Program-made: the position numbers and the translations under genes
Source of the DNA: Patescibacteria group bacterium
Lineage (GTDB): Bacteria; Patescibacteriota; Patescibacteriia; UBA9570; JAHJKD01
Direction of reading: 5' to 3'
Length of the DNA: 64,000 nucleotides
NCBI GenBank assembly: GCA_043798935.1
Contig: JAZDOC010000017.1
Span: 64,381 to 128,380, forward strand
Shown here: one piece after another, positions 19,981 through 51,923 of the stretch
Layout of the letters: every line of letters starts with the position of its first letter
Numbering within the stretch: position 1 is the first letter of the stretch
Notes under the pieces: model-generated
Databases searched by the model: none
What the model saw: the letters and a program-made list of their open reading frames with translations, nothing else
What the model was told of the DNA's origin: nothing

Positions 19981-20760
19981 ATGTCAGACATTAAACAAAT
20001 ACAAAAAAACAAACGCATCCAAAGGCAGATTATTGGAATTTTTGTGGTAGTTGGTTTAGCAGTTTTAATACTTGGTTTTTTAAATTTAAGAAGTAATTTA
20101 AAAAAGCCGTTTATAAGCTATTATACCAATTACAATAAACTTACTGATGAACAAGAACAAACCGATGCGCTTTTAGCCCTCCGCGCCAAAGATTCTGATG
20201 GCGATGGATTGACCGATTACGATGAGTTATATCAATATAAAACAAGTCCTTATATAGCAGATTCTGATTCTGATGGCTACGACGATAATACTGAAATTAG
20301 CAGCGGATATGACCCAAATTGCCCAAAAGGGCAAGATTGCAAGCGTTTAATTGATGAAACTAGCACTAATACAAACTCGGCCTCAACCAATACAGATACC
20401 AGTGAAGAGCTAACCCCTGAACATTTAAGGCAAGTATTAATTGCTAATGGAGTTTCTCAAGCAGATTTAGACTTATTAGACGACGCTACTTTAATGGAAT
20501 ACTACCAAGAGGCTATTAATGAATCCAACCAAGATGTTGAGCAGAAATACAGCGAAAATACTAATGAAACAGATCCGAATGCAGAATTATTAAATACTAA
20601 TCAGTCGACTAATAACACAGCGAGCGTGGGAAGTCTGCAAAATTTATCGGCCGATGATTTAAGAAAATTATTAATAAACACCGGCGATTTCAGTGAAGCA
20701 GACTTAGCTACCATTGATGACGATCAATTAATGAGTATTTATCAAGAATCAATAAAATAA
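19981..20760 (+). CDS. Membrane-anchored protein with Ca-binding TSP3/dockerin-like Asp repeats and an internal ~40-aa duplicated helical motif.
   Basis: It has an N-terminal TM helix (IIGIFVVVGLAVLILGFL) and the Asp repeats DSDGDGLTDYDE and DSDSDGYDDNTE. A duplicated segment reads LTPEHLRQVLIANGVSQADLDLLDDATLMEYYQEAI and LSADDLRKLLINTGDFSEADLATIDDDQLMSIYQESI. Confidence 0.55.
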   Translation: MSDIKQIQKNKRIQRQIIGIFVVVGLAVLILGFLNLRSNLKKPFISYYTNYNKLTDEQEQTDALLALRAKDSDGDGLTDYDELYQYKTSPYIADSDSDGYDDNTEISSGYDPNCPKGQDCKRLIDETSTNTNSASTNTDTSEELTPEHLRQVLIANGVSQADLDLLDDATLMEYYQEAINESNQDVEQKYSENTNETDPNAELLNTNQSTNNTASVGSLQNLSADDLRKLLINTGDFSEADLATIDDDQLMSIYQESIK

Positions 20761-20771
20761 ATTTTTATATT

Positions 20772-34400: not shown

Positions 34401-34409
34401 AATTTTTAT

Positions 34410-37157
34410 ATGAGAAATTTTTTAGCCAAATTAAAAAAAATATTTATTACAAAGCCGATTTATGCCTTATTCGCTGTTTCTATTATTAGCATCGGCTTAA
34501 TTTTTCCCATATCATCATGGGCTCTGGATCCGGTTGCTTGGGTGGCTGATAGCATAACAGTTGATTTGGCTCGAATTTTAGTTTGGCTGATGTACATGCT
34601 TTTTATTTTTATTGCTGGCCAGCTCGGAACTTGGCTTACTGGCATGATGGTGTGGGCTTCCGGGTTTACGGGTTTTACAAATATCAGCGTGGTCACTGAA
34701 ACTTGGATGGTGGTTAGAGATTTATGTAATCTGCTTTTTATTGTCATGTTATTAATCATTGCATTTGCTACCATACTGCAGATTGAATCCTACTCATACA
34801 AAAAATTACTGCCAAAATTAATAATTGTGGTATTACTTATAAATTTCAGCCAGATGATTTGCGGTCTTGCGGTAGACGCGGCCCAGGTGGTAATGCTTAC
34901 TTTTGTAAATGCTTATAGCGGAGCCGCTAAACAAGGTTTTTATCAATTATTCCAGCTAAAAGATCTAGTAGATTTAGGATGGGATAAAGAAATAGATGCC
35001 GTCAGTACAGTTGCCGGCGCAAATGGCAAGAAAAATTGGCAGAACATGGATTATTTGCTAGCCGTATTTGCTTCGGGCGTAATGCTTACGCTAATCTGCG
35101 TAATCATGATAACAATATTTTTAACTTTAGTTGCCAGAATCGTCTTTATTTGGACGCTTACTATATTGTCTCCATTAGCTTTTGTCGCTTCAATTCTTCC
35201 TATTACTCAAAAATATTATCAGCGTTGGCTGTCTATGTTTGGTCGGTATATTGCGGTTGGTCCACTGCTGGCTTTTTTTGTCTGGTTGGCTTTATTTGTT
35301 GTGGTTAAAGCTGGGGATAGCGGTATATCTAGTCAACTAACTATACCTGGCTCCGGGCTTGTGGACGGTCCTAGTAACCTGACTGTAACTAAAGCGCTTG
35401 AGCCGGATGTTTTTATTAATTTTACCATTGGCTGCATGATGCTAATGATTGGCATTAAACTCGCGCAGGAAATGTCCTCGGAAATTAGCGGCATGGTCAG
35501 TAAAATTGCCGACATGCCGAAAAATGCCGCCAAGTGGTATGCCACCCGGCCGTATGCTTTGGGTAGATGGGGTGTTGGAAAAGCTTGGGGCGGTGTCAAA
35601 AAAGAAGCATTGGCTCGGGCCTCTTTATTGAATTCTCAAATATATGCTAAAACCGGTATTCAACTCAATCCGGCAAAGCGTTTGGAAGGAAAGCTTCGCG
35701 AAATAAACGAGGAAACACACTTAAATGAAGTAAAAGGCGAAATAGGTGGATTAGATCATATTGGAAGAGGCGAAGGCATCAGAGGATGGGCGGGTGCGCC
35801 CGGTTCGTTTTGGCGTTATTCTGGTCCGTTAAAAATGTGGGGGCAAAAAGGCGATCAAAAAATGCAAGAAAAATTAGCTGTTAGAAAAAAAGAACTAGAA
35901 GAAAGTGAAAATTATAAAAAAAATGTTCAAAGCGCAGCTGACGCAAGAGATAGAGTGGTTAATGGACAAGAACCAGTTAAAACAACGGCTCAAAATAATC
36001 TGGAAACACTAGACAGAAAAGCACAGTTAAAAGCAATGATGGATAGCATGAAAAAACTCGATGGCAATATAGATCAAGAAAAAATTATTGGTGCTATTAA
36101 AAGTCTTGGTTTACAGGACTTATATATGAATGGCAATGCATTGAAAGATGACTTTTTATCTGATTTAGAGAATGTTGATACTGAAAGAGAAGAGCAAAGA
36201 ACAAGCATAAGAACTGCTGATGCAGAAATCGGAAAAGCTCATGAACAATACGAAAAGGCTATTGAAGCAGCCAAACCGCAAGAGTTAAAAGATATTAATA
36301 AACAGATGGAAGGACTTTCCTTTGTATTTGATCCACGTAAAATGAAATTGTTGCAAGAGCATACTACTAAAATGTCTGATGGTTATAAAACTATAAATGA
36401 TGGTGAAATAGTTGATATGTATCGTAGTTTAGTGAGAATGGGAAAACATAATGAAGCATTGGCCTTATATTATCATGCTGCTAAAGTGGGCCATGGTAAC
36501 GAAATATTGAAAGCAGAAAAATTGCCTGTTAACGGCGAAGGCTTAGACAAAATGGAAAAAAAGTTTAAAGATGCTGGTTTAGGTGAGCAATATGTAAGAA
36601 GTGTAATGAATATGGCTAGCCAAGCCGCTGAACATAACGGCCATAATGCAATTGCCAGATGGTATACTAGTGAACATGGCCAAATAAAGCGCATCAGCCA
36701 GGAAGAGCACGATTTAATTACTGCAATTGAAGCTAGTAAAGAAGGCATTAGAACCAACTTGAGCAATGGTAATCATATGCGTTGGGGCGAGTATGATGGT
36801 CAAAAGAATTGGTCAATGCAAAATGCAATGTTGCATATGTTAATTCGCGGCGTAGATAAAAATGTAGCTCATAGTATTGAACATGGTCATACGGTTATTG
36901 GAACAAATTTAGTTCATTCATTACGTAAAGAAATGGTAGAAACTGCCGCATTAATTGGTGCGGCAGAAAAAGAAGGCAATGGCCACGTTGTTAAAATTTT
37001 AACTGATATTATAGGAGCCGATAAACTTGCGCAAGTTAGGTCCACTCAGGGTGAAAAAATTGGACAATTAGTCCAAAGTAAGTTAGCAGCTGTTCATAGA
37101 ATAGATCATAGAATAACCCCAGACTCCTCGCATAGGTTTGGCGTTGGCATATCCTAG
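34410..37157 (+). CDS. Polytopic membrane protein of 915 aa, a candidate VirB6/TrbL-like T4SS channel component with a long hydrophilic coiled-coil C-terminal domain.
   Basis: About 8 predicted TM helices lie in the first ~350 aa, followed by ~550 aa that are hydrophilic and coiled-coil rich. The gene starts 10 nt after the giant gene. The assignment rests on topology, not sequence. Confidence 0.45.
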   Translation: MRNFLAKLKKIFITKPIYALFAVSIISIGLIFPISSWALDPVAWVADSITVDLARILVWLMYMLFIFIAGQLGTWLTGMMVWASGFTGFTNISVVTETWMVVRDLCNLLFIVMLLIIAFATILQIESYSYKKLLPKLIIVVLLINFSQMICGLAVDAAQVVMLTFVNAYSGAAKQGFYQLFQLKDLVDLGWDKEIDAVSTVAGANGKKNWQNMDYLLAVFASGVMLTLICVIMITIFLTLVARIVFIWTLTILSPLAFVASILPITQKYYQRWLSMFGRYIAVGPLLAFFVWLALFVVVKAGDSGISSQLTIPGSGLVDGPSNLTVTKALEPDVFINFTIGCMMLMIGIKLAQEMSSEISGMVSKIADMPKNAAKWYATRPYALGRWGVGKAWGGVKKEALARASLLNSQIYAKTGIQLNPAKRLEGKLREINEETHLNEVKGEIGGLDHIGRGEGIRGWAGAPGSFWRYSGPLKMWGQKGDQKMQEKLAVRKKELEESENYKKNVQSAADARDRVVNGQEPVKTTAQNNLETLDRKAQLKAMMDSMKKLDGNIDQEKIIGAIKSLGLQDLYMNGNALKDDFLSDLENVDTEREEQRTSIRTADAEIGKAHEQYEKAIEAAKPQELKDINKQMEGLSFVFDPRKMKLLQEHTTKMSDGYKTINDGEIVDMYRSLVRMGKHNEALALYYHAAKVGHGNEILKAEKLPVNGEGLDKMEKKFKDAGLGEQYVRSVMNMASQAAEHNGHNAIARWYTSEHGQIKRISQEEHDLITAIEASKEGIRTNLSNGNHMRWGEYDGQKNWSMQNAMLHMLIRGVDKNVAHSIEHGHTVIGTNLVHSLRKEMVETAALIGAAEKEGNGHVVKILTDIIGADKLAQVRSTQGEKIGQLVQSKLAAVHRIDHRITPDSSHRFGVGIS

Positions 37158-37174
37158 AATTAATATAAATTTTT

Positions 37175-39046
37175 ATGGCATATTATAATCAACAATATAA
37201 AGATGTAGATTTAACCAGTAGTGAACAAGTACGTAAATATTTACGCGATAATGAAACTTACCTTAAAGAAATGGATGCGGCCATGTGCTTGCAGGCTGAT
37301 ATTTTTTTAAACCGTTATTTTAAAGAGAAGCCAAATTTTGAAAAAGAATATCCGCATGAATATGCTAGCTTAAATGAATTTATAATAGATTGTCGATGGG
37401 TTTCATTGCCGGCAATTAATCAAAAAGAGGTGCTGGATTTATTTACTAATAATATTAATAGCGCTTGGAGTTTGTTTGCTCGATACGATTTTTATATCGA
37501 GGATACAGATTTTTTGGATCAAAAAAGATTGATCGAAAAAAATTTAATGAATTTTATTTCCGGTATTTTTAGTTTTAAAGACCAAGATGCTTTTAAAAAT
37601 AAACTGCAAGACGCTTTGCGTCAGAGTGAACAATTAATTACTATCGAGCCGATTATAGATGGACAATTAAGAATAAAACCAACTTTGGCTCATTGGTTCG
37701 ATCTTTATTTTGAAGCCGTAGGCGTCGGAGCGGCCAATCAATTAAAGATTGCGCAGTTTTATGCCAAAGACAAAAATTTTCAAAAATTATCAGATTCGGA
37801 AAAAGCGAAAATGAAAATGATTTTTCATATTTATAATCAAATGCGTTTTTCCTCGCAAGATTTTATTCATGCGCCCATCAAAGAATATATGGTGAACGAT
37901 GAGGGTGTAATAGGTGTTTGGGAAAACGGCGTTTTTACGCCTTTTCCGTTTGTAGATAATAAACCTAAAAAAATTAATAAAAATCAAGACGATATGTACA
38001 ATGGAGTCCCATCATATAAACCAACCAATGAACCGTTAAGCGTCACCAAAGATATTTTTGGCGATGTCGACGCCAAAGAAATTGAAGATCATAGCCATTC
38101 CGGTTTGCGCAAACAAGCGCCGGTTGATAAAGACGCAATTATTAAATCTATTAAAGAGCAATTTCATCTAACTTTTTCCAGTTCTGAATCCGAAACCAGA
38201 TTTAATAATTTAACCGCCACCTTCGTTCTTGGCATTAGAGACGCCATGGAATATAAAGCCATGCTTACTCGTCCGGCCGATGTGGGTGGGCTTGATTATC
38301 GAATTGAAACAGCCGAAGCCATTACCGATGCCATTAAAAAATTATTAGGCGATAGCTTGCCTCAATCTGCCAGTTCGGTTGCTATGCCCCAGATAACTCC
38401 GACAGTTAAATCAGCGCCAACACCAGAACCAGCCCCTACGCGTCCTTCAATGCCAGCAATGCCCGCATTAACTCCATCATTAGAGCCCGATAAAAAGCCA
38501 CAGCTAAATTTAGCACAGGCTCAGGCCATGATGGATCAAGCCAAACAAATTGCCGCCACCATGAAAAAACCAGAGCCTGTTCAAGTAGAGACAGAGAAAA
38601 AAACTGAAGCCCCGATTGCTAAGCCGGTTTTAGAAACCAGTCAGGCCATACCGCAAGTGCGTCGCTTGGAAACCAATAAACCAATTGTTCAAGATATTAA
38701 AAAGCCCATTGTTAAACCAGTGCTCATGGGTCCGCAGGAAGAACTTGGAACTTTAGATCTTTCCAAATTTAGAAAATTAGCAGAAAATTCCGTGGAAGCA
38801 GCAGAAAAGATTAAGCATAAAATTGAATTATTAGAAGAACAATCTTTTGTTAGTAAATCGCAAGGGATTTTAGCTTTTAAAAATTCACCGCTTAACGCAA
38901 TTTACTTGCGTATCGGAAACACCAGTATCGATGAAGGGCGCTCGGTGCAAGAAGTAATTAATTCAATGACTGTGGCCGGTGAAAAAGTTTTAACCATGGA
39001 AGAGTTCGACGCCATTGCCGACTTAAATAAAAAAATAAGATATTAG
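37175..39046 (+). CDS. Hypothetical soluble protein of 623 aa with a Pro-rich linker.
   Basis: It has no TM segment and no NTPase motifs. A PTPEPAPTRPSMPAMPALTPS linker separates two domains. It sits in the T4SS-like operon. Confidence 0.5.
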   Translation: MAYYNQQYKDVDLTSSEQVRKYLRDNETYLKEMDAAMCLQADIFLNRYFKEKPNFEKEYPHEYASLNEFIIDCRWVSLPAINQKEVLDLFTNNINSAWSLFARYDFYIEDTDFLDQKRLIEKNLMNFISGIFSFKDQDAFKNKLQDALRQSEQLITIEPIIDGQLRIKPTLAHWFDLYFEAVGVGAANQLKIAQFYAKDKNFQKLSDSEKAKMKMIFHIYNQMRFSSQDFIHAPIKEYMVNDEGVIGVWENGVFTPFPFVDNKPKKINKNQDDMYNGVPSYKPTNEPLSVTKDIFGDVDAKEIEDHSHSGLRKQAPVDKDAIIKSIKEQFHLTFSSSESETRFNNLTATFVLGIRDAMEYKAMLTRPADVGGLDYRIETAEAITDAIKKLLGDSLPQSASSVAMPQITPTVKSAPTPEPAPTRPSMPAMPALTPSLEPDKKPQLNLAQAQAMMDQAKQIAATMKKPEPVQVETEKKTEAPIAKPVLETSQAIPQVRRLETNKPIVQDIKKPIVKPVLMGPQEELGTLDLSKFRKLAENSVEAAEKIKHKIELLEEQSFVSKSQGILAFKNSPLNAIYLRIGNTSIDEGRSVQEVINSMTVAGEKVLTMEEFDAIADLNKKIRY

Positions 39047-39055
39047 ATCTATTGT

Positions 39056-39523
39056 ATGCAAATGAATTTTGTGGTGCCACAATTTATTGAGGTCGAGAGT
39101 AAAGTAATCGGTCCTATTTCGATTCGTCAATTTATTATTTTATTGGTCACGGCCGGTTTTCTGTGGCTCTTTTGGACCATTCTAACATTTTGGTTTGCGG
39201 CTATTGTCGATATATTCTGTTTGGCCGTGGGCGGTACTTTTGCTTTTGTAAAAATCAACAGCCAACCTTTTCATATTTTTGCTTTGTGTTATGTGCAAAC
39301 CATGCGGTCGCCAGCTTTAAAAGTTTGGCAACGCGAACGTAATTTCATACTTAAAAAAATAGAGAAAAAAGCTAAACCCACAGTTGCGCCGGCTTACAAA
39401 GCGGTTCCAACACAATCGCGCCTAACTGAATTATCGCTTCTAGTCGATACAGGCGGTGTTTATAAGCCTGAGGAATTGCAAGATCAAGTTCAACAAAAAT
39501 TAAATTCACAATCTAACAAATAA
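39056..39523 (+). CDS. PrgI/VirB3-like small membrane protein.
   Basis: 155 aa with two TM helices, followed by the FAFVKINSQPFHIFALCYV motif that resembles the Gram-positive T4SS PrgI family. It sits directly upstream of VirB4, as in prgI-prgJ. Confidence 0.5.
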   Translation: MQMNFVVPQFIEVESKVIGPISIRQFIILLVTAGFLWLFWTILTFWFAAIVDIFCLAVGGTFAFVKINSQPFHIFALCYVQTMRSPALKVWQRERNFILKKIEKKAKPTVAPAYKAVPTQSRLTELSLLVDTGGVYKPEELQDQVQQKLNSQSNK

Positions 39524-39527
39524 AAAA

Positions 39528-40223
39528 ATGTCTTCGTCAGCTAAAACAGAAATGCAACATAAAACAAAACAAATTCCTTCAACGCAAAAATATTTACCAA
39601 TTGCGGAGATTAAAGACGACCTCGTGGTTTTAAAAGATGGCACCTTGCGCCAGGTGTTGATGGTGTCTTCCATTAACTTTGCTTTAAAAAACGAAGATGA
39701 ACAGCAGGCTATTATTAATGGCTATGTTCAGTTTTTAAATACTTTAGATTATCCCATTGAAATTGTTATTCAATCGCGTAATTTAAACATTGATGCTTAT
39801 ATCAATAAATTAAAAAAACTCGCTAAAGTGCAAACCAACGAACTGCTGAAAATTCAAACCATCGAGTATACCAATTATATTCAACAAATGGTAGAATTAT
39901 CTCAGATCATGGAAAAAAGATTTTTTATTGTTGTACCGTATTCGCCATATTCCAATAAACCAAAAAGTTTCTGGACTCGATTGCAAGAAGTTTTATCTCC
40001 CGGCAGCGTAATTAAATTAAATGAAGAAAAATTTAATAAGTTTAAAGAAGAATTAATTCGTCGTACTTCCATTGTGGCCAGCGGATTAACTTCAATTGGT
40101 TTAAAAGTCGCTCCGCTTGATACCCAGGGTTTAATAGAATTGTATTACCAAGCTTATAATCCGTCGCGGGGCAAGCCAAAAATTCTACCCGATATTAATC
40201 AATTGAAAATAGAAGAAAAATAA
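39528..40223 (+). CDS. VirB4/PrgJ-family T4SS ATPase, N-terminal domain fragment (split gene).
   Basis: 231 aa. The segment DDLVVLKDGTLRQVLMVSSINFALKNEDEQQAIINGYVQFLNTLDYPIEIVIQSRN matches the conserved N-terminus of Gram-positive VirB4 homologs. Its stop TAA (40221-40223) overlaps the next ATG (40223-40225). Confidence 0.65.
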   Translation: MSSSAKTEMQHKTKQIPSTQKYLPIAEIKDDLVVLKDGTLRQVLMVSSINFALKNEDEQQAIINGYVQFLNTLDYPIEIVIQSRNLNIDAYINKLKKLAKVQTNELLKIQTIEYTNYIQQMVELSQIMEKRFFIVVPYSPYSNKPKSFWTRLQEVLSPGSVIKLNEEKFNKFKEELIRRTSIVASGLTSIGLKVAPLDTQGLIELYYQAYNPSRGKPKILPDINQLKIEEK

Positions 40224-42118
40224 TGATTGATTTAAGAGATTCAAAACTACAAGCTCAGAAAAAATTACCGCTGGTCGATGAATCAACCAAAGAACAGCGC
40301 GAACAAGCCCGAGCCCGACAAATAGCCAAAGATCAAGAGGCTAAAGATTTAATTACCGCCAAAAACATTTATGAAAGTGGCGTCACTTACGTATTAGATT
40401 TAATTTCACCGGCCGCTTTAAAAGCCGAACCGCGTTATATAGATTTAGGCGGTAAATATTGCTCTACCATGTTTGTGGTTTCTTACCCGCGTCATATTAA
40501 TGTTGGCTGGTTTGCGCCCATCATTAATTTGAATTTATCGCTCGACATTGCCATGTATTTTTATCCGGTGAAATCAAACATTATTTTAAAACAATTGCGC
40601 AATAAAGTTGGTTCGCTGGAAGCTGAATTAATTTCTGATTCGGAAAAAAGAGCACCGCGTGATCCGGTTAAAGAAACCGCTTTGCGCGATATCGAAGGTT
40701 TGCGCGATAGTTTAACCCAGGGAACCGAAAAGTTTTTTCAATTCGCTTTGTACATTACAATTTATGCGGACGAAAAAAAAGAGCTGGAAGATTTAATGGA
40801 AAAAATGGATTCCATGTTTGGCTCGAAATTAGTGACGGCTAAACGTATTTTTTATCAGGCCGAACAAGGTTTTAATTCCACCCTCCCTTTAGGCATCGAT
40901 GAAATTCAAGTTTATTTCAACATGAATTCTTCACCGTGCGCTTCATCCTTTCCGTTTATTTCTTCGGAATTAACATCAGATAACGGTATTTTATACGGCG
41001 TTAATCGTCATAATAATAGTTTAATATTATTCGATCGTTTCAGTTTACAAAATGCCAACTCTGTGGTTTTCGCTACTTCGGGCGCCGGTAAAAGTTATAC
41101 CATTAAATTGGAAGTTTTGCGTAGTTTGATGATGGGAACCGATGTTATTATTATCGATCCGGAAAATGAATACAAGCATTTAGCCGACGCTGTTGGCGGA
41201 ACTTATATTAATATCTCTTTAAACTCGGATGCTAAAATTAACCCGTTTGATTTACCGCGTCCGGTTGGTGGCGCCGATAAACCGGCCGATATTATTAGAA
41301 CAGCCGTAATTACTTTAAAAGGTTTATTGCGTTTGATGCTGGGAAAAATTAGTGATGCCGAAGATTCTATTATGGACAGAGCTTTGATTGAAACTTACGC
41401 TAAAAAAGATATTACGGCTGATACGGATTTAAGCTTAGGCGTGGAACCGCCAATCATGGCCGACTTTCAGAATATTTTGGAAGGTTTTGAAGGAACGGAA
41501 AATTTAGTTATCAGGTTAAAGAAATTTACCGAGGGTACTTTTTCCGGATTATTCAACAGTCCCACAAACATTGATATGAAAAATCAGCTAGTCACTTTTT
41601 CCGTGCGTGATCTGGAAGACGAATTAAGACCAATCGCTGTTTACAATATTGTCACTTATATTTGGAACGTTGTACGCTCTAAATTAAAACAACGCATGTT
41701 GATTATCGATGAAGCTTGGTGGCTAATGCAGAGCGAAGACAGCGCTAAATTTATTTTTGCCTTGGTAAAACGTTGCCGAAAGTATTATCTGGGTGTCACT
41801 ACAATTACTCAAGACGTAAACGACTTTTTACTTTCTCCTTATGGCAGAGCAATTGTTACCAATTCGGCCATGCAGATTTTATTAAAACAGTCGCCGGCCG
41901 CGATCGACAACATCGCCAAAGTATTTATGTTAACCGAAGGCGAGAAATATTTATTGCTAGAGGGTAATGTGGGCGAAGGCATATTCTTTGCAGGCGAACG
42001 GCACGTAGCCATTAAAGTTGTGGCCTCGCAAACCGAAGATCAAATTGTCACATCCGACCCGCGGCAATTACTGGAAATTGAAGAGTCTAAAAAGGAATTC
42101 GCGGCTCAAAATTCTTAA
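40223..42118 (+). CDS. VirB4/TrbE/PrgJ-family type IV secretion ATPase, C-terminal ATPase portion.
   Basis: 631 aa. It has Walker A VVFATSGAGKSYTI and the VirB4-typical Walker B MLIIDEAWWLM (DEAW), plus C-terminal conserved blocks. Confidence 0.85.
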   Translation: MIDLRDSKLQAQKKLPLVDESTKEQREQARARQIAKDQEAKDLITAKNIYESGVTYVLDLISPAALKAEPRYIDLGGKYCSTMFVVSYPRHINVGWFAPIINLNLSLDIAMYFYPVKSNIILKQLRNKVGSLEAELISDSEKRAPRDPVKETALRDIEGLRDSLTQGTEKFFQFALYITIYADEKKELEDLMEKMDSMFGSKLVTAKRIFYQAEQGFNSTLPLGIDEIQVYFNMNSSPCASSFPFISSELTSDNGILYGVNRHNNSLILFDRFSLQNANSVVFATSGAGKSYTIKLEVLRSLMMGTDVIIIDPENEYKHLADAVGGTYINISLNSDAKINPFDLPRPVGGADKPADIIRTAVITLKGLLRLMLGKISDAEDSIMDRALIETYAKKDITADTDLSLGVEPPIMADFQNILEGFEGTENLVIRLKKFTEGTFSGLFNSPTNIDMKNQLVTFSVRDLEDELRPIAVYNIVTYIWNVVRSKLKQRMLIIDEAWWLMQSEDSAKFIFALVKRCRKYYLGVTTITQDVNDFLLSPYGRAIVTNSAMQILLKQSPAAIDNIAKVFMLTEGEKYLLLEGNVGEGIFFAGERHVAIKVVASQTEDQIVTSDPRQLLEIEESKKEFAAQNS

Positions 42119-42141
42119 ATTCAATCATTAATATAATTTAT

Positions 42142-42774
42142 ATGTTTGCCCAAAAAAAATTCATTATAATCGTCACCGCTCTTTTAGCATTATTATTCAT
42201 TGGCTTTGGTGTAATTTTCTATATTTATCAAAATCATCAAACTGAAATTAAACCAGAAAACAGCAATACCAATATAGCTGTTAATAACACTAATAATCAA
42301 ATCGATAATCAGGGGAATATTATTATTGATGAAACAAATAACAATGCCAACAGCGCGTCGCCGGCTGAAAGCGAAACATTTGTGGCTACCCAAGCTAATC
42401 AAACAAATGCCATTTTAAAGCTGGCTAAAAATTTTGCTGAGCGCTTTGGAACATATTCCAACGAGAATAATTACGATAACATCAGAAATTTAAAAAATAT
42501 TTCCAGCACTGAAATGCAAGCCTGGCTGGAAACTTTAATTGATAATAATAGCAAGAAGCCAAATGAAGCGTTTAGTGCTGTGACCACTAAAGCTTTAACA
42601 GTTGATTTATTAAGTTTTGATGTTGGATCAAATATCGCCGAAGTAATGGTAAGCACTAGCCGTAGTGAAGAAGCAGAATTTTCCACTGAAAAGAAAACAT
42701 ACACTCAAAAAATAAAAATTGAAATAATCCAGGAAAATAATTCTTGGAAAATAAATCGCGCTTATTGGCAATAA
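42142..42774 (+). CDS. Bitopic membrane protein, possibly VirB8/TcpC-like (NTF2-like C-terminal domain). Speculative.
   Basis: It has an N-terminal TM (FIIIVTALLALLFIGFGVIFYIY), an N-rich linker and a ~120-aa alpha/beta C-terminal domain. Confidence 0.35.
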   Translation: MFAQKKFIIIVTALLALLFIGFGVIFYIYQNHQTEIKPENSNTNIAVNNTNNQIDNQGNIIIDETNNNANSASPAESETFVATQANQTNAILKLAKNFAERFGTYSNENNYDNIRNLKNISSTEMQAWLETLIDNNSKKPNEAFSAVTTKALTVDLLSFDVGSNIAEVMVSTSRSEEAEFSTEKKTYTQKIKIEIIQENNSWKINRAYWQ

Positions 42775-42782
42775 TTAAAATT

Positions 42783-43085
42783 ATGCCACAAACCATAAAT
42801 GATCAAAAAAACGAAATTGCTCAAACTTTATCGTTTATTTTAGAAAAAGCACCGGATTTAATATTGAAAAATGATCCGGATGTATTAAAATTTAATTTTG
42901 AAAAAGCCGTGCAAAAAGCCACTCAACTTTATTATTTAAATTTGTATCAAGTAAAAAATGTTGAAGTTGATGAACACATTAAAAAAGCCACTGAAGAAGA
43001 TATTATTAAGCAATATCAAGCCATGCTAGCTAATTTAATGATTACTTTTAAACAGGTGGAAGTTGAAAAAAAGCTTGAAAATTAA
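42783..43085 (+). CDS. Small hypothetical cytoplasmic protein.
   Basis: About 100 aa starting at MPQTIN, right after the upstream stop. The ORF track extends it to 42744, overlapping the previous gene. Confidence 0.4.
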   Translation: MPQTINDQKNEIAQTLSFILEKAPDLILKNDPDVLKFNFEKAVQKATQLYYLNLYQVKNVEVDEHIKKATEEDIIKQYQAMLANLMITFKQVEVEKKLEN

Positions 43086-43202
43086 TATAGCCCCGGGCTT
43101 TATGCTCGTGGGCGGTGAGAAAGAAACATCAATATTAATGCCAGTCCACGCCCATAAAAGGCGGGGCTAAAAAATTATAAAAATTGCAAAAAATAAATAA
43201 TC

Positions 43203-44471
43203 ATGAATAATCCAAGCTCACAAAATTTACAATCAGAAATGGGAGAGCAAATAAAAGATGCTGTTAAAAGTAATCCTAATTTAAGTGTGGGCGAGGCGAT
43301 TAGCGACTTGTGTCAGCATCCAAAATTTCAAAAATTATTATCAGATTCCGTCATGGCTTTACCGCTTCAATATATTGATGCTGATACATCAGCCGATGTA
43401 AAACGAGCCGGTGCTATGAAAGCCATGGTAGCCACCGCCGTTATGGCTGATGCTGTAGTTCAAGCGCAAAAAGAGCAAGAAATGCAGGATATAGCCTTAG
43501 AAGCTTTAATGGCTCATTTAATGTTGAATGGTTTAAATCCTGAACAAGCTGAAAGTTATGCCCGAAACGCCATGGGTCATCCGGCTACGGATTCTGCACC
43601 CGAGGAAGATCAGAAAGCAGATGAGCATGGTCAAAAACAAGCTCAAGATGCTCAAGCCGTCGCTTCAGATGCCGAAGGCGATGGAGAACAACCAGATGGC
43701 GAAACAGGTGAAGGCGAACCAGACACTCCCCAAGAAACCGTTGAGCCTGGCAAAGAAGATGAAGCCGCCAGAAAATTACAGGACGAAAAAAATAAAGATG
43801 CTCAAAAAAAAGAGGGTGAGCAAGAAGACGGAGATAAAAAAGAAGGCGAAAACCCTGAAGGTGAGGGAAAAGAAGACAAACAACCCGGCCAAGAAGCTGG
43901 TGAGGAACCAGGTGAAGACCAAACCGCTTCACCCGAACAAGAAACGGCCGAGCCGGAAGAATCAGAGGATCAGAATGCTGAGAATCAAGAAGGGGATGAA
44001 GGCCAAGAAGGTGAAAATCAAGGTGCGTCGCCGGAAGAACAATCTCCGGAAGGAGAGTCCCCGGAGGCTAAACCAGAAGAAGAGGCTGACAAAGGCCGTG
44101 AATTAGCTGAAGATAAAAAGGAAGATGAAGATAAAGAAAGTAATATTCCAAGTAAAGATGAATTAGCAAAAGCCGTTAATAAAATAAAAAAAGAAACCGA
44201 ATCAGCTCTAATTGAAGCGTTTCTCAGTGGCCTGCCTGAAAGTTTATTGTTGTTATTAATACCTTTTGTTCCGCCCATAAATATTCCTTTGGGAATTTTA
44301 GCAATTAAGTTTGGTTTTGATGGAAAAATAGATTTTGATATGCCATTGTTAGGAAAAATTAAATTGATGGATTTTGATGCGTTAGAACGTGCAATTATGA
44401 TCTCGTTTGGAGTGGCTTGTTTTTTGGAATATATCATTGGATTTGTATTGTTGCTTTATTTTTTTAATTAA
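43203..44471 (+). CDS. Extremely acidic, low-complexity (E/D/G/K/Q-rich) protein with a C-terminal membrane anchor.
   Basis: 422 aa. Residues ~120-330 are almost entirely E/D/K/G/Q/P repeats (EGDGEQPDGETGEGEPD...). The C-terminal ~80 aa carry two hydrophobic helices (LLLLLIPFVPPINIPLGILAIKF, ISFGVACFLEYIIGFVLLLYFF). The lysine-rich and other ORF-track entries overlapping this gene are out-of-frame low-complexity artefacts. Confidence 0.5.
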   Translation: MNNPSSQNLQSEMGEQIKDAVKSNPNLSVGEAISDLCQHPKFQKLLSDSVMALPLQYIDADTSADVKRAGAMKAMVATAVMADAVVQAQKEQEMQDIALEALMAHLMLNGLNPEQAESYARNAMGHPATDSAPEEDQKADEHGQKQAQDAQAVASDAEGDGEQPDGETGEGEPDTPQETVEPGKEDEAARKLQDEKNKDAQKKEGEQEDGDKKEGENPEGEGKEDKQPGQEAGEEPGEDQTASPEQETAEPEESEDQNAENQEGDEGQEGENQGASPEEQSPEGESPEAKPEEEADKGRELAEDKKEDEDKESNIPSKDELAKAVNKIKKETESALIEAFLSGLPESLLLLLIPFVPPINIPLGILAIKFGFDGKIDFDMPLLGKIKLMDFDALERAIMISFGVACFLEYIIGFVLLLYFFN

Positions 44472-44513
44472 GCTTAAAAGTAATTTGCTGAACGTCATAA
44501 AATATGGTATAGT

Positions 44514-45896
44514 ATGAACATGCTTTTAGCGAAAAATAAACATTTATTCATTAGGTTTCTAACAGCGCCTATTTTTTTAATTATACTAAATTTTATTCCG
44601 AAAAGTGCACAAGCTGAAGGCGAAAAGCAATATGTAAAAAATATTGGTTATTTATTAGAAGTTCCTATTCCTACAATATCCAGCGGTGGTGTTTCGCTCG
44701 TAAATAATATTGTTGAATATGTTCAACTGATTTATGAAGTGAGTATCTCTATAATTGCGCCATTAGCAGTAGTGGCTATTATCTATGGCGGTGTTAGAAT
44801 TGCCTCTTCAGCCGGAAATGAACAGTCTATTACATCTGGTAAACAAGTAATTATTTCAGCTATTATTGGTTTATTAATACCATTATTAAGCTATAGCGGT
44901 TTAAAATTAATAAATTCTCAATTAGTTGATTTGCAGAATATACAGGTTGAGAAAATAGTTTACGAACCCGATACAGAACCAATTTATACTTTACCGGATT
45001 GCGGTCGTGATTCACGTTTTGAAGATTGCAAAGATACACTTTGCGGGGAAACTTGTTTTAACGAAGAATTAGGCTTAAGTTGTCGCGGTGAAAAAGCAAA
45101 TTCGGCTAACGCTACGGCAAGTTGTTCAGGAAACATGACAGTTATTGGGTCAGGCCCTGGTCAGTGCGAGTGTTACCCATACGCTACAAGCATAACCGAG
45201 GGAAAAATAAAATATAAGATGCAGAGTGCAGATTGCGTCGATCCGGCAATAATAGCAGTTCAAACTTATGATAAATTATATAAAGACAGAAAAGATCGTG
45301 AATTTATGGTGAATGCAATGACTGCGCTTTCCATTTGTGGTAATAATTTTGAACCTTTCTACAAACAAAGCGATATCATGGCAATTGACGAATATGTTGA
45401 TCTTGTATTTGGCTGGTCACATATGGAATTAATGAATAATATGCTAAATCGAAATATGGCAGCGTCTACTTTGTTTTATATTACTTTAAATAAATCATGG
45501 CATTCTCAAACTAACCATGTATATAGTGATCTTTTTGGATTTTGCGCACAAAGGAACAATTATGTTTTTAAAAGTCATAGCCAGTTAGAAACAACAACAA
45601 ATTGTGAATTTAATCTAAATTGCGGAATTCATCCTAGTTATAACGATGCTAGTGATATTTTTGGTTTATTTTGTATGCCTAACGATTGGTCTCAGCTTTT
45701 ACTTAACGGACACGAATATAAAGCTAAAGACATGTCGTCTTTTAATGCTAGCCAGTTTAAAAAAGCACTTTTTTGGGGTGAATATTTGGTCGGTAAATAT
45801 TATAACGGTACTGCTACAAGTTATGATAATGAGTTTATCATGACTCAAGAAATTGCCAATAAATTGGATAATAATCAATACGAAAGTTTTCACTAA
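44514..45896 (+). CDS. VirB2/TrbC pilin-like N-terminal domain fused to a ~300-aa Cys-rich C-terminal domain.
   Basis: It has a signal peptide and two hydrophobic helices separated by a short loop (IAPLAVVAIIYGGVRIASSAGNEQSITSGKQVIISAIIGLLIPLL). It is paralogous to residues ~60-150 of the 47910-49301 protein. The C-terminal domain has about 14 Cys and no recognised motif. Confidence 0.5.
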   Translation: MNMLLAKNKHLFIRFLTAPIFLIILNFIPKSAQAEGEKQYVKNIGYLLEVPIPTISSGGVSLVNNIVEYVQLIYEVSISIIAPLAVVAIIYGGVRIASSAGNEQSITSGKQVIISAIIGLLIPLLSYSGLKLINSQLVDLQNIQVEKIVYEPDTEPIYTLPDCGRDSRFEDCKDTLCGETCFNEELGLSCRGEKANSANATASCSGNMTVIGSGPGQCECYPYATSITEGKIKYKMQSADCVDPAIIAVQTYDKLYKDRKDREFMVNAMTALSICGNNFEPFYKQSDIMAIDEYVDLVFGWSHMELMNNMLNRNMAASTLFYITLNKSWHSQTNHVYSDLFGFCAQRNNYVFKSHSQLETTTNCEFNLNCGIHPSYNDASDIFGLFCMPNDWSQLLLNGHEYKAKDMSSFNASQFKKALFWGEYLVGKYYNGTATSYDNEFIMTQEIANKLDNNQYESFH

Positions 45897-45900
45897 AATT

Positions 45901-47136
45901 ATGCAACTAACAGATTTACAAAAGAAAATATTATACTCAGCTCTATTAATAATAGTGGCAATTGGCATGGCGATTATTATTTATATAGTGTTTTTTAAAG
46001 CGCCTAAAGAAGAATTAATTAATGTAAATGGCGAGCTTGTGCCTGAAAGCATATTTCCGGAAATAAACGCTAATGTTAATCAGGATATTGATGTTAGTAA
46101 TACTAATGCTTTTAATGGCGTGCCCACAATCGATTCGGTAGCGCGTGGATCCAACACTTTAACCGACACATTAACCGATGAAAGTGCCTCTGATATGACG
46201 CTTTCAGCCAATGGCAAGGACGTCCAATATTACAACAGCGAAGACGGAAAGTTTTACCGCATCAACGAGCTGGGTGAAAAAATTGCCATGAGCGATGAAA
46301 TTTTTAAGGGTGTAAATAATGTCACTTGGTCTAACAGCAGCCAATCCGCTGTATTAGAGTTTGATGATGATTATAATTTATTTTACGATTTTGAAAAAAA
46401 GAAGCAATATACTGTTCCTAAAGAAATGGAACAATTTACCTTCTCACCGACTGATGACCAGATTGGTTTTAAATATATGGCCATCGATAAAGAAGATCGC
46501 TGGTTGGGGGTAATGGATCCGGACGGTTCAAATCCTCGGGGCTTGGAAAAACTTGGCGATAATGCCGATAAAATTGAAGTAAATTGGTCGCCATCCGGAA
46601 AAGCCGTTGGAACTTTTAATGAATATATCGACGGTAATCGTCAGCGTGTAATTCCGATTGGTCTAAATAGCGAGAATTTTAAACAAATGACGGTTGAAGG
46701 CAGAGGTTTTGAATATGCTTGGTCGCCAACCGGAAAACAAATGCTTTATAATGTTTTTGGTTCATATTCAGATTATCAGCCGACTTTATGGATAGTTGAT
46801 GCTGAAGGTGAACAAATCGGCGAGAATCGCACGGCTTTAGAAATGAACACGTGGGTAGACAAATGTACTTTTTCTAGCAAAACTCAGCTTTATTGCGCTG
46901 TACCGCAAACCTTGCCGACCGGTGCCGGCTATGCGCGTGATGTGGCTGACAATATTCCGGATAATATTTATAAAATAGATTTAGCAACCGGTAAAAAAGA
47001 ACTAATGGCTATTCCCATTAATGCTTTTGGTACCGAACAGTATACCATTAATAATATGCAGGTCTCTGATGACGGTGCTACTTTGTTTTTTACTGATGTT
47101 CAACAAAACAATATTCATAAATTAAAATTAAAATAA
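45901..47136 (+). CDS. Membrane-anchored beta-propeller protein (TolB/PD40-like repeats).
   Basis: It has an N-terminal TM (LYSALLIIVAIGMAIIIYIVFF) and repeated WSPSGK/WSPTGK PD40-like motifs. I place the start at MQLTDL (45901); the ORF track begins at 45853. Confidence 0.5.
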   Translation: MQLTDLQKKILYSALLIIVAIGMAIIIYIVFFKAPKEELINVNGELVPESIFPEINANVNQDIDVSNTNAFNGVPTIDSVARGSNTLTDTLTDESASDMTLSANGKDVQYYNSEDGKFYRINELGEKIAMSDEIFKGVNNVTWSNSSQSAVLEFDDDYNLFYDFEKKKQYTVPKEMEQFTFSPTDDQIGFKYMAIDKEDRWLGVMDPDGSNPRGLEKLGDNADKIEVNWSPSGKAVGTFNEYIDGNRQRVIPIGLNSENFKQMTVEGRGFEYAWSPTGKQMLYNVFGSYSDYQPTLWIVDAEGEQIGENRTALEMNTWVDKCTFSSKTQLYCAVPQTLPTGAGYARDVADNIPDNIYKIDLATGKKELMAIPINAFGTEQYTINNMQVSDDGATLFFTDVQQNNIHKLKLK

Positions 47137-47137
47137 C

Positions 47138-47917
47138 ATGAAAAAAAACAATTTCCATTTATCAGATACTACAGTTTTAATTATTGTTGCTGTAATTGGT
47201 TTATTACTGCTTGTATTTTTTTTATTATTTGGATCAGCACTTGTTCAAGGCATCTTTGCTTTACCGGTTGAAAGTAATAATACCAATACTAATGCATCAC
47301 AAATTGCCAGCTCTACTAATAACGGCGGTTTGGAATTAGGCTATGATCCATTGATTACTATGGTGCCGGAAGATCTCCAGACGCTTGGCAAAAACAGCAA
47401 AGTGTTCATCTCCGATGTTGATCCTTATCTGGGTTCGTCGCAGGCTAAAGCCGTGGTGGTTGTATGGTCGCGCTTCGATAACGAGCAAGCCAAGGAAAGT
47501 GCTGATATTCTTAAGCAAATTTCTAATGAATATGGCGATAAAATTGTAATTATATGGAAAGATTTTATTAATCCTGATAATAATAACGAAATTGGCTATT
47601 CGGCTGCGCTGGCCGCTCATTGTGCTAATGAGCAAGATTTGTTTTGGCCGTATCATGATTTATTATTCGATAATTATGATCATTTAGACGCAAATACTAT
47701 AAGCGAATTAGCGACCACGGTTAATCTAGATATGAATATTTTTAATGAATGTATCGACAATCAATCTACTAAAGCGATTGTTGAAAGCAACTATTATCGC
47801 GGCCTTAGCGCCGGCATTACTAATGCGCCGGCAGTGTTTGTAAATGATGCCATGATAGACGATGCTCTTAATATTGATACTCTTAAAAATGCAATTAATG
47901 ATAAAATAAATGAATAA
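47138..47917 (+). CDS. DsbA-like thioredoxin-fold protein lacking the CxxC active site (predicted catalytically inactive).
   Basis: It has an N-terminal TM and retains the DsbA-family motif AAHCANEQDLFWPYHDLLF. Where the family places the CPxC active site it has VVVWSRFDNEQ, and the protein contains no CxxC. Confidence 0.55.
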   Translation: MKKNNFHLSDTTVLIIVAVIGLLLLVFFLLFGSALVQGIFALPVESNNTNTNASQIASSTNNGGLELGYDPLITMVPEDLQTLGKNSKVFISDVDPYLGSSQAKAVVVVWSRFDNEQAKESADILKQISNEYGDKIVIIWKDFINPDNNNEIGYSAALAAHCANEQDLFWPYHDLLFDNYDHLDANTISELATTVNLDMNIFNECIDNQSTKAIVESNYYRGLSAGITNAPAVFVNDAMIDDALNIDTLKNAINDKINE

Positions 47918-49301
47918 TAAAAAAATAATATCATATTTTTTTGCGCTATATTTTGTAATCAGCGCCTTTATCCCCCTTATTTCTTTAGCCGGGTCCGCAA
48001 CAGCAACAACCCCAACAGCTGCAAAGAGCACGGTACCAGCCGCTTGCACGGATTTTGCGGATAAGGAAGTGGAATGGACTCAGCAAGAAGATATCATGTA
48101 TTTTTTAGAAGTCCCATTATTTGGCAAGCTTTATGTCACTAATTGGAACGATTATCTGGAAACCGTTTATAATTTTTCCATTACTTTAATTCCTATTTTT
48201 TCTTTAGCCGCTATGTTTTACGGCGGTTTTCGCTGGGCCGCATCGGCCGGCAATGAGCAAGCTATTACTAGTGCTAAAAATGTAATTACTTCAGCTATTA
48301 TTGGATTATTAATTGCTTTACTAGGCTATGGTATGGCTGGGCGCATAAATTCGGCATTAGTAGATAATCACGATGTTAGAATATATAAAATTCCAATTGC
48401 CAATCCTTATGATAGTAGCTGTGAACTTCCGCCGGAAAGTAGAGTTGATCTGGCTATTAGTGCAGTAGCGCCTCATCAATTTGCTTCTTCAACTATTAGC
48501 TCTGGTGGATGTCCAAATCTTAAAGTAGCTATCGAAAAAGCTTTGGTTAATTTAAGTGCACTGGCAGTTACAAAAGGCGCGCCTATTGTATTGAGTGGAT
48601 CGGGTTGGCGTTCAGCTGAAAGGCAATGGTATTTCTTTGCCTGTTATTGCAATGCTCAAATTACCGGTGAATGTAAAAGCGGTGCATGCAATGGATGTCA
48701 ATATTGTGAATCTAATAATTGTAATTTAGCGTCTAAGCCGTGTGATGGCGATTCATCTCGGCATCCGCGCGGTTTAGCCGTAGATGTTAAAATTGTTGGA
48801 ACAATTTTAGAAGGGCATGGCACAACCGGTTATAATTGTCTTAGAGGAAGCCATCCAACCGATAAAAGTTTTGGTTTTTCGCTAAGTGGAAAAGATAAAG
48901 CAATTTGGGATGCATTAAAACCAGAAGAACAAAAATCCCTATGTGAGTGGCAAAAAGACTTAAAAGAAGCCATGACTGGCGGTCCGGGAACGCCTTATGA
49001 CACTAACCCTACCGGTTTAAAAGGAATAAAGTCAGAGTGGTGGCATTTTCAATTATCATCGACAACGGCTTGTTTCGAACTCGGTACTTATGGGCTATCT
49101 TGTCCTTGCAAAGATTCAGCTCCTACAAATTGTCCAACCGGCCAACATGCAGTATGTAAGTTGAAAGATAACTCGTATTCTCAAAGCGAAGGTTGGCAAT
49201 GTATGGATTCTTCAATTGGAAGTGAGAAGAAAACAATAACAAAAATGATTAGCGGCAATGGTGTCGCCACTCTTTATAATTTTAGCTGCATAGTAAATTA
49301 G
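47910..49301 (+). CDS. VirB2/TrbC pilin-like N-terminal domain fused to a Cys-rich linker and a LAS-family (M15/VanY-like) zinc peptidase domain.
   Basis: The N-terminal segment YFLEVPLF...AAMFYGGFRWAASAGNEQAITSAKNVITSAIIGLLIALLGYG is paralogous to the 44514 gene. The C-terminal domain has SRHPRGLAVDV (SxHxxGxAxD, nt ~48753) and SEWWHFQ (ExxH, nt ~49030), the zinc-ligand signatures of D-Ala-D-Ala carboxypeptidase / LAS peptidases. Confidence 0.55.
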   Translation: MNNKKIISYFFALYFVISAFIPLISLAGSATATTPTAAKSTVPAACTDFADKEVEWTQQEDIMYFLEVPLFGKLYVTNWNDYLETVYNFSITLIPIFSLAAMFYGGFRWAASAGNEQAITSAKNVITSAIIGLLIALLGYGMAGRINSALVDNHDVRIYKIPIANPYDSSCELPPESRVDLAISAVAPHQFASSTISSGGCPNLKVAIEKALVNLSALAVTKGAPIVLSGSGWRSAERQWYFFACYCNAQITGECKSGACNGCQYCESNNCNLASKPCDGDSSRHPRGLAVDVKIVGTILEGHGTTGYNCLRGSHPTDKSFGFSLSGKDKAIWDALKPEEQKSLCEWQKDLKEAMTGGPGTPYDTNPTGLKGIKSEWWHFQLSSTTACFELGTYGLSCPCKDSAPTNCPTGQHAVCKLKDNSYSQSEGWQCMDSSIGSEKKTITKMISGNGVATLYNFSCIVN

Positions 49302-49328
49302 AATAATCAATAAAAGTTTCTATTAAAA

Positions 49329-51341: not shown

Positions 51342-51417
51342 TGGTGCCCTCGGCAGGAATTGAACCTACGACCTTTCCGACCGCAACGGAACGCTCTATC
51401 CACTGAGCTACGAAGGC
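51342..51417 (-). tRNA. tRNA-Arg, anticodon GCG by manual fold; CCA encoded.
   Basis: The sense sequence is GCCTTCGTAGCTCAGTGGATAGAGCGTTCCGTTGCGGTCGGAAAGGTCGTAGGTTCAATTCCTGCCGAGGGCACCA. It gives a clean cloverleaf with 7-bp acceptor, D, anticodon (TTCCG/CGGAA, loop TTGCGGT) and T (GGTTCAATTCC) arms. It lies 1 nt from the recG start codon. Confidence 0.8.
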
Positions 51418-51422
51418 AAAAC

Positions 51423-51923
51423 TTAGATTTTCATTATTCTTCCAAGTTGGTCGCTGGGAGAAATATATTTTTCTTGCAAATCTTCCTTAATATATTTTAG
51501 CAATGCTTTTCTGATATACACCGGATTCATTTTAATAAGCGGAATTGAAAGTTCGGGTTTTATTTTGCTATCAATATGAAAATAAAGATTTTTAACATAA
51601 GGCGGTTCATAAATAATCCAGAAACGCTCGATATTTTTATAAGGAATAAATTTTTCTTCGAGTATTATGCCATCTTCGGCAATATAGAAATTCAATAAAT
51701 TGGGGTGTCGTTTTTCGTGAATGGTAATGATAGCTGTGAGGATAATTATAATAACCGCAAAAAGAAAATTACTTACCCAAAGTGCATAAGTAAATAACCC
51801 TAAGCCACCAACAATAAACACAACATACCACCAAACAGATTTGGCATAGTGTTCATGTTCGGGGATTTGCCATTGAGCTAATATTTTACCAAAAGTATTA
51901 TTATTTTCCATGTTATTACGCAT
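51423..51923 (-). CDS. Hypothetical membrane protein.
   Basis: 166 aa with two predicted TM helices near the N-terminus. No family motif recognised. Confidence 0.45.
   Translation of the reverse strand: MRNNMENNNTFGKILAQWQIPEHEHYAKSVWWYVVFIVGGLGLFTYALWVSNFLFAVIIIILTAIITIHEKRHPNLLNFYIAEDGIILEEKFIPYKNIERFWIIYEPPYVKNLYFHIDSKIKPELSIPLIKMNPVYIRKALLKYIKEDLQEKYISPSDQLGRIMKI

Follow-up and report, generated by a model that had tools for sequence, protein, structure and literature searches.

The gene at 47138..47917 (forward strand, like every feature given below unless stated otherwise) in the window, a 64-kb stretch of DNA from a Patescibacteria group bacterium, encodes a protein of 259 amino acids (aa) that starts with ATG and that, judged by homology, is a member of the Thioredoxin_4/DsbA family without the family's defining catalytic feature, the CxxC pair of cysteines. 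The gene lies in a cluster for a type IV secretion system (T4SS), and we regard it as reasonably probable that its product, called pseudo-DsbA here, is the catalytically dead descendant of a T4SS-linked DsbA, kept for a non-catalytic role in binding or escort and/or as a structural adaptor. Because the defining catalytic feature is missing, the names oxidoreductase and isomerase are unsuitable for pseudo-DsbA; its exact database match, NCBI MFH0819062.1, encoded on a 129-kb contig, is named 'thioredoxin domain-containing protein' (Patescibacteria group bacterium).

A preliminary description of this DNA had proposed a DsbA-family thioredoxin fold for the protein, and Pfam, alignment with BdbD, AlphaFold and Foldseek bear this out, such that pseudo-DsbA is confirmed as a genuine DsbA/BdbD-type thioredoxin-fold protein. 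The Pfam profile Thioredoxin_4 (PF13462) matches with 66.6 bits (cut-off 23.2, E=3.9e-18), aligning residues 95-255 with profile positions 5-165 of 165, and DSBA (PF01323) matches with 38.3 bits (cut-off 25.6, E=1.5e-9); apart from a weak transporter match, these are the only Pfam matches at E<=1. The best solved relative found by phmmer is Bacillus subtilis BdbD (3eu3, E=6e-6). Two AlphaFold models, built from alignments of 11 and 28 sequences, both reach a predicted local distance difference test (pLDDT) score >90 over residues 90-259 and have the topology b-b-a-b-(5 helices, 152-224)-b-b-a, that is, two strands, helix alpha-1, a strand, the helical insertion, two strands and a C-terminal helix. 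Together with Pfam and Foldseek, they place the DsbA/BdbD-type domain, a thioredoxin fold with an inserted helical domain, at 47420..47902 (residues 95-255). In a Foldseek search of the PDB, BdbD 3eu3 ranked first (E=1.4e-10, target-normalised TM-score 0.80), ahead of ScsC, C. diphtheriae DsbA and TsdA, and Wolbachia alpha-DsbA1 and alpha-DsbA2. Ahead of this domain lies a hydrophobic helix (47165..47263, residues about 10-42; AlphaFold helix 10-39, pLDDT 85-95), which we take for a membrane anchor; the Lys-rich N-terminus MKKNN comes before it, and by the positive-inside rule the DsbA domain would be located outside the cytoplasm. Two other family assignments were tried and rejected: the best NCBIfam match, the Rcas_1661 family (seleno)lipoprotein (NF041057), scores 62.6 bits against a cut-off of 190, covers only residues 135-255 and meets codon AAC at residue 115, while no Pfam match to TraF was obtained at E<=1.

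The former active site, F113-D-N-E-Q-A118 (47474..47491), was located by pairwise alignment with BdbD, by multiple alignments and at the level of the codons. In the BdbD alignment F113-D-N115-E-Q-A118 of the query falls over Y-K-C-P-S-C, and in multiple alignments with canonical relatives F113-A118 falls over F-x-C-P-x-C, placing N115 at the position of the nucleophilic cysteine and A118 at that of the second cysteine, at the start of helix alpha-1. The codons of this segment read TTC GAT AAC GAG CAA GCC in an uninterrupted frame, and no CxxC occurs anywhere in the protein, whose only cysteines are C162 and C205. The alignments thereby agree with the preliminary description, which had read VVVWSRFDNEQ at the active-site position and had reported no CxxC elsewhere; a fold other than that of DsbA and a CxxC missed through error, the two outcomes it had named as speaking against its view, were both looked for and neither was found. 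A hidden selenocysteine was rejected, as the gene has no in-frame TGA, and a frame or sequencing error was rejected, as 20 independent orthologues agree in having no CxxC. At the sequence level the redox inactivity that had been suggested for pseudo-DsbA is well supported, the loss being conserved throughout these orthologues.

The orthologue set comprises the window protein and 19 full-length orthologues from protein and genome searches (P0002-P0005, P0094, P0162, P0176-P0185 and the genes in loci L003 and L004; P0176 is the gene in L005). P0094 and P0162 were added by a representative search of 1.84 billion proteins, in which the best 150 matches mostly have 2-6 tandem DsbA-like stretches; a profile search of genome contigs gave 3 Patescibacteria loci of use among 80, and a profile search of metagenome contigs with the clade profile found only canonical DsbAs among the matches listed, via a generic helical-domain pattern. 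Both catalytic cysteines are absent in 20/20 orthologues, which form three subclades: A, which includes the window protein, has the site W-S-(R/S)-F-D-N-x-x-A, B has F-G/A-(N/D)-(L/I)-..., and C has F-G-(S/D)-(F/W)-... together with a change of the cis-proline to His. As a background we used 171 aligned related domains from 157 unrelated loci: 158 have CxxC, nine have TGA-xx-C, two have Cxx(A/S), one full domain has neither cysteine and the last is a short fragment off the site. Loss of both cysteines is rare in this background.

The nine TGA cases are DsbA-like genes of other bacteria with an in-frame TGA at the first active-site cysteine ('FSDFQ*PFC'), apparently selenocysteine UxxC versions (U-P-F-C), and they fit NCBIfam NF041057, the Rcas_1661 (seleno)lipoprotein family; they are found in L107 (626-628), L038 (3672-3674), L083 (4097-4099), L090, L084, L009, L021, L102 and L143, those that are labelled being metagenome-assembled genomes of Acidobacteria and Vicinamibacterales. 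A tandem array of 1196 aa (P0027) has a first domain without CxxC (FGGFQSRFTA) and later domains with CxxC; inactive DsbA domains therefore also occur within tandem arrays, which are common among the best 150 library matches mentioned above.

The gene is under purifying selection and is not a pseudogene. The open reading frame (ORF) has stayed intact and full length in every one of the 20 members, at identities of about 28-48%, and 21 columns, including those of a clade-specific N-terminal motif, are invariant in the CxxC-less clade. For L001 versus L167, the closest pair with DNA (92% aa identity), the ratio of nonsynonymous to synonymous substitution rates (dN/dS) is 0.137, or about 0.14; for the more distant pair L005 versus L166 the proportions of nonsynonymous (pN) and synonymous (pS) differences are 0.106 and 0.78, the latter saturated.

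Among the residues that are retained, the two cysteines stand out. C162 (AAHCANEQ; 47621..47623), in the helical domain, and C205 (FNECID; 47750..47752) are invariant in 20/20 clade members, and CxxC-bearing relatives have the pair as well. The exact counterparts of C162 and C205 in Wolbachia alpha-DsbA1 are, by alignment, Cys97 and Cys146 (3f4r; PDB entry 3f4t is the C97A/C146A mutant), which form a second, helical-domain disulfide that is reported not to be redox-active (PMC3839904). Because of this correspondence we read C162 and C205 as the two halves of a probable structural disulfide, which would make pseudo-DsbA a client of oxidative folding and not a catalyst. P231 (47828..47830) marks the DsbA cis-proline loop position, A230-P231 being aligned with T-P of BdbD; this column holds proline in 170/170 alignable background domains and His in subclade C (P0162, P0184 and P0185). 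Finally, a linear motif N-terminal to the fold, L-E-L-G-Y-D-P-L-I-T-M-V-P-E-D-L-Q (47330..47380, residues 65-81), recurs in the CxxC-less clade as L-E-L-G-Y-D-P-L-(I/V)-T-x-V-P, with I and V alternating after D-P-L and with D70, P71, L72, T74, V76 and P77 of the core D-P-L-x-T-x-V-P invariant.

The pseudo-DsbA gene is part of a long same-strand array (19981..49301) that, by the homologies of its genes, contains a Patescibacteria T4SS cluster. In order, the array encodes a TSP3-repeat protein, a 4542-aa VWA protein, proteins of 915 and 623 aa, a PrgI/VirB3-like protein (39056..39523; Pfam PrgI E=8.8e-8), a 231-aa TraC-like/TrsD-like protein (39528..40223; orthologues annotated TraC-like) and a VirB4-type ATPase (40223..42118; Pfam TraG P-loop E=1.1e-29), followed by a 210-aa membrane protein (p210), a 422-aa protein, a 460-aa T4SS_pilin fusion with 14 cysteines (44514..45896; Pfam T4SS_pilin E=2.1e-5), a membrane-anchored protein of 411-427 aa, pseudo-DsbA and a 463-aa T4SS_pilin-VanY fusion. 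Patescibacteria T4SS are related to monoderm conjugation systems (PMC12102498). A promoter and terminator scan of 42000-51500 gave counts at chance level.

The immediate upstream neighbour (45901..47136) is membrane-anchored and a probable PD40/TolB-like beta-propeller, as suggested by sub-threshold but mutually consistent Pfam matches (THOC3 beta-propeller, PD40, Peptidase_S9_N and SGL). Its mechanical ORF begins at a TTG at 45853, overlapping the gene before it, while orthologues point to the ATG at 45901 (M17). Its two conserved cysteines form a CX9C (residues 338 and 348 of the long ORF) that is invariant in five aligned sequences (the window, L001 and L003-L005). The orthologues in related loci are 45-65% identical and always stand directly upstream where covered. 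The downstream neighbour (47910..49301) joins a T4SS-pilin-like membrane domain to a Cys-rich VanY-like peptidase domain (463 aa, 20 cysteines; weak Pfam matches to T4SS_pilin and VanY), and its orthologues carry VanY in L002 and Peptidase_M15_4 in L163. Sequence searches of the PDB with both flanking proteins gave no match. The three genes are tightly packed: the stop codon of the beta-propeller gene lies 1 nucleotide (nt) before the ATG of pseudo-DsbA, whose own stop is overlapped by 8 nt by the ATG of the pilin fusion, and overlapping or abutting junctions recur in L003 (4213/4216 and 4983) and L005 (10001).

This order is conserved. A pilin fusion directly follows pseudo-DsbA in 8/8 related loci (L001-L005, L166, L167 and L168), the beta-propeller gene directly precedes it in 7/8 (the contig of L167 begins 15 nt before the gene), and VirB4 and p210, themselves downstream of VirB3, lie upstream of the block wherever the contig extends far enough. 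The preliminary description had spoken of an operon full of Cys-rich exported proteins, which overstates the case: three of the approximately 13 ORFs in the array are Cys-rich and the others have 0-4 cysteines. Both pilin-type neighbours, the 460-aa and the 463-aa fusions, are nevertheless among the three, and pilin fusions of the CxxC-less lineages have 10-24 cysteines. The third is the giant 4542-aa protein at the array head (20772..34400; Pfam VWA E=3.8e-8), with an N-terminal hydrophobic segment and 170 cysteines (3.7%).

As a separate observation on the pilin fusions (47910-49301 and 44514-45896), a conserved pilin-like membrane module is combined with swapped Cys-rich C-terminal domains, among them a VanY/M15 peptidase, a lysozyme-like domain ('GLFQINL') and others. 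These proteins diverge fast: L001:6839-8038 and L167:773-1969 share 55% aa identity, and pseudo-DsbA 92% in that pair.

The origin of the CxxC-less clade can be approached through Patescibacteria sisters of matching length and architecture that bear a CxxC, namely P0186 (CEAC; HLD22156.1), P0187 (CGFC), P0188 (CEFC) and P0189 (CAVC), which are annotated only as 'thioredoxin domain-containing protein'. They share with the clade a related D-P-x-x-T motif, which is a weaker form of the N-terminal motif (e.g. EDPFVTVVPKG in P0186), as well as a V-W-K-D-Y strand and the helical-domain cysteine pair. An N-terminal hydrophobic segment is present in P0186, P0188 and P0189; P0187 (208 aa) begins beyond it. 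They differ from the clade in that both catalytic cysteines and the cis-proline are kept, and they are presumably active oxidoreductases. In a neighbour-joining domain tree the 20 CxxC-less sequences are monophyletic, with P0186 as sister and then P0187-P0189.

P0186 occupies an identical slot in its locus (L163), between an orthologue of the beta-propeller protein (42% identity over the full length) and a T4SS_pilin+Peptidase_M15_4 fusion. Further downstream L163 encodes RadA, RecG, a phosphoribosyltransferase and ClpB, and the last three of these recur downstream in the window, in the same order. In L165 the CAVC DsbA P0189 comes immediately after VirB4 and p210. Since the sisters keep the CxxC and P0186 occupies the same slot, the ancestral state in this part of the Patescibacteria is therefore a T4SS-linked, presumably active DsbA, and the loss of both cysteines, with the protein itself retained, probably happened once, in one lineage. 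The active-site dipeptides of the sisters (CEAC in L163:10001-10735, CAVC in L165:6733-7503, CGFC in P0187 and CEFC in P0188) are unusual compared to the common CPxC, and their redox properties may be atypical.

Thioredoxin folds without CxxC that serve in substrate binding or escort are known from the b and b' domains of the protein disulfide isomerase (PDI) family and from ERp29; these differ from pseudo-DsbA in being unrelated in sequence, in having no DsbA-type helical insertion and in belonging to the eukaryotic endoplasmic reticulum. A T4SS precedent is TraF of the F plasmid, a thioredoxin-like protein without CXXC that supports pilus extension independently of redox activity, whereas the TraF of R27 is redox-active; Cys-rich extracytoplasmic components are found in the F system too, namely TraN with 22, TraU with 11 and TraH with 6 cysteines (PMC11315126). 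Like TraF, pseudo-DsbA has a thioredoxin fold without CXXC, is encoded in a T4SS cluster, is probably exported and has an active, or in its own case presumably active, version in related systems. The two differ in family, as TraF is a putative DsbC homologue in the literature and pseudo-DsbA is of the DsbA/BdbD type with an inserted helical domain, and in setting, as TraF is soluble in the periplasm of a diderm, F-type system and pseudo-DsbA is predicted to be membrane-anchored in a Patescibacteria system of monoderm type, similar to mating-pair formation class FATA (MPF-FATA-like). Moreover, inactive TraF has been reported never to occur without active TrbB in F-like plasmids, whereas no active paralogue accompanies pseudo-DsbA in its cluster or in the 64-kb window. 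By analogy, TraF is the closest functional counterpart, from a different family, and the resemblance is convergent.

Nearer relatives by structure retain their chemistry. BdbD, the closest solved structure, is a DsbA-like, membrane-associated protein; it belongs to a monoderm, where its site of action is outside the membrane (PMC2749146). It differs from pseudo-DsbA in being an oxidising thiol:disulfide oxidoreductase with a CPSC site and in having neither the helical-domain cysteine pair nor the N-terminal motif. Alpha-DsbA1, which resembles pseudo-DsbA in the positions of Cys97-Cys146 (C162 and C205), differs in keeping the catalytic CxxC and in working with alpha-DsbB; in the present set the corresponding pair occurs in Patescibacteria and in other relatives.

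A binding or scaffold role for pseudo-DsbA can be outlined as follows. The ancestor would have introduced disulfides into the Cys-rich ectodomains of the pilin fusions upon their emergence from the membrane. In the CxxC-less lineage the disulfide chemistry would be supplied elsewhere, by a housekeeping oxidase encoded outside the window or non-enzymatically, and the T4SS-linked copy would have been retained for the cysteine-independent part of the job: to bind or escort the unfolded Cys-rich ectodomains of the pilin fusions and/or to provide the extracellular T4SS apparatus with a fixed structural adaptor. The D-P-L-x-T-x-V-P peptide, which we interpret as a docking peptide because it is strongly conserved yet not confidently folded in the models, would probably dock onto a partner, for which the co-translated beta-propeller protein is the most economical candidate. 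As the old site is not uniformly preserved across the subclades, a role as scaffold or adaptor is to be weighted somewhat above that of holding substrate peptides in the old groove as DsbA does. The preliminary description had suggested a partnership with the Cys-rich pilin fusions and with the giant protein; the former fits the conserved gene order, the coupled junctions, the selection on the gene and the TraF precedent, whereas nothing links the giant protein specifically to pseudo-DsbA.

Several points weigh against such a role. The argument for it is drawn from gene order and analogy, and the beta-propeller assignment of the putative docking partner comes from sub-threshold Pfam matches only. 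The N-terminal motif has a pLDDT of 38-60 in both AlphaFold models, the one from the deeper alignment included, and is not confidently modelled. The residues that replace the catalytic cysteines differ between subclades and the cis-proline is lost in subclade C, such that the old substrate-binding site is not uniformly kept. As for an alternative source of disulfides, no DsbA, DsbB, VKOR, CcdA or MauE-type protein was found among the other ORFs of the 64-kb window, no further DsbA-like domain when the window and L001-L005 were translated in all six frames, and no alternative oxidase in the flanks of the related loci.

A more specific and more tentative version of this role, which we think possible but would not bet on, is that pseudo-DsbA is a fixed subunit of the extracellular T4SS or pilus apparatus, docked via D-P-L-x-T-x-V-P onto the beta-propeller protein and holding the fast-evolving Cys-rich pilin fusions, such that TraF and the Patescibacteria systems would independently have turned a disulfide enzyme into a scaffold. 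If true, a DsbA-like protein grouped with a beta-propeller and a pilin fusion would make up a module, so far undescribed, of the machinery that is reported to be essential for epibiotic growth.

Other explanations for a conserved DsbA-like protein without CxxC have to be weighed against the binding or adaptor role. The old fold might have acquired a new, non-thiol chemistry or a ligand, as in the DsbA-like kappa-class glutathione S-transferases (kappa-GST) and 2-hydroxychromene-2-carboxylate (HCCA) isomerases, or as a binder of metals or small molecules. Pfam DSBA indeed also contains enzymes without CxxC, the well conserved site of subclade A (W-S-(R/S)-F-D-N-x-x-A) suggests a new constraint at the old position, and metal-related ScsC proteins are among the structural neighbours. 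However, metal handling of the ScsC type uses a CxxC, the site motif is not conserved across the three subclades and subclade C has lost the cis-proline, leaving no shared new catalytic constellation visible, and the tight linkage to T4SS structural genes points to a component of the machine and not to a metabolic enzyme; we consider a new chemistry unlikely. Still less probable is that pseudo-DsbA remains redox-active in a non-canonical way, through a C162/C205 centre or through cysteines lent by a partner, such as the CX9C of the beta-propeller protein or a CxxCxxC in the 463-aa pilin fusion. The invariance of C162 and C205 in 20/20 members and the conserved cysteines of the neighbours would be expected from it, but the same pair is present in CxxC-bearing relatives, and the aligned disulfide of alpha-DsbA1 is reported not to be redox-active. 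Thioredoxin-fold chemistry takes place at the N-terminus of helix alpha-1, and C162 and C205 are in the helical domain, away from this position.

The drift of the old site between subclades, the missing catalytic residues and the loss of the cis-proline in one subclade could also be those of a functionless relic, kept only through its place in a translationally coupled operon. We give this little credence: an ORF intact in 20/20 members, a dN/dS of about 0.14, 21 invariant columns and a fold predicted at pLDDT >90 all speak for a protein that is still in use. An artefact, in which a frameshift, a sequencing error, a TGA selenocysteine or a wrong gene call conceals a CxxC, would have some footing in the selenocysteine versions known in the family (nine related loci with TGA at the first cysteine) and in the (seleno)lipoprotein family being the best NCBIfam match. 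It is nonetheless virtually dismissed by the codons AAC GAG CAA GCC in their uninterrupted frame, by the agreement of 20 independent assemblies and by the NCBIfam score of 62.6 versus a cut-off of 190. A binding, escort or adaptor role of a catalytically dead DsbA descendant hence stays our preferred reading.

Beyond the preliminary description, the analysis adds the T4SS identity of the operon, the match of the cysteine pair to a known non-catalytic disulfide and the CxxC-bearing orthologue in the same slot. T4SS genes are reported to be essential for epibiotic growth of cultivated Saccharibacteria, and Patescibacteria T4SS components outside the VirB3/VirB4/VirB6 core are largely unassigned (PMC12102498). 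To some of these clusters our data add a conserved accessory block, made up of a probable beta-propeller protein, a DsbA-like protein and Cys-rich pilin fusions. The main text of the same survey (PMC12102498) makes no mention of a thioredoxin, DsbA or disulfide component, and a literature search on Patescibacteria or the candidate phyla radiation (CPR) combined with DsbA or disulfide machinery found nothing relevant. T4SS pseudoenzymes with a thioredoxin fold are already known from TraF; a DsbA-type, predicted membrane-anchored Patescibacteria version with a presumably active orthologue in the same slot was not found described in the literature searched. It parallels the role of TraF in F-type conjugation, the mechanism of which is still unclear. 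It also amounts to a natural experiment: the same slot holds a presumably active enzyme in some lineages and a pseudoenzyme under selection in another, which gives a direct way to tell the catalytic from the structural part of the job of a secretion-linked DsbA. The database names 'DsbA family protein' and 'protein-disulfide isomerase' are functionally misleading for the CxxC-less clade.

Some minor observations concern the surroundings of the array. In L001, L002, L163, L165 and L168 the gene after the DsbA-like gene, or else after the pilin fusion downstream of it, encodes a RadA-like ATPase; this gene is absent from the slot in the window (49301-49329), where RecG on the opposite strand comes directly next. 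ORFs 42-1430 (462 aa), 1781-5128 (1115 aa) and 61358-63565 (735 aa) have no Pfam match at E<=0.001, and the last of these has an N-terminal hydrophobic segment and 12 cysteines. An IS200-like Y1 transposase is encoded at 15476-16042 (Pfam Y1_Tnp E=1e-8), immediately upstream of leuS and some 4 kb ahead of the T4SS-containing array.

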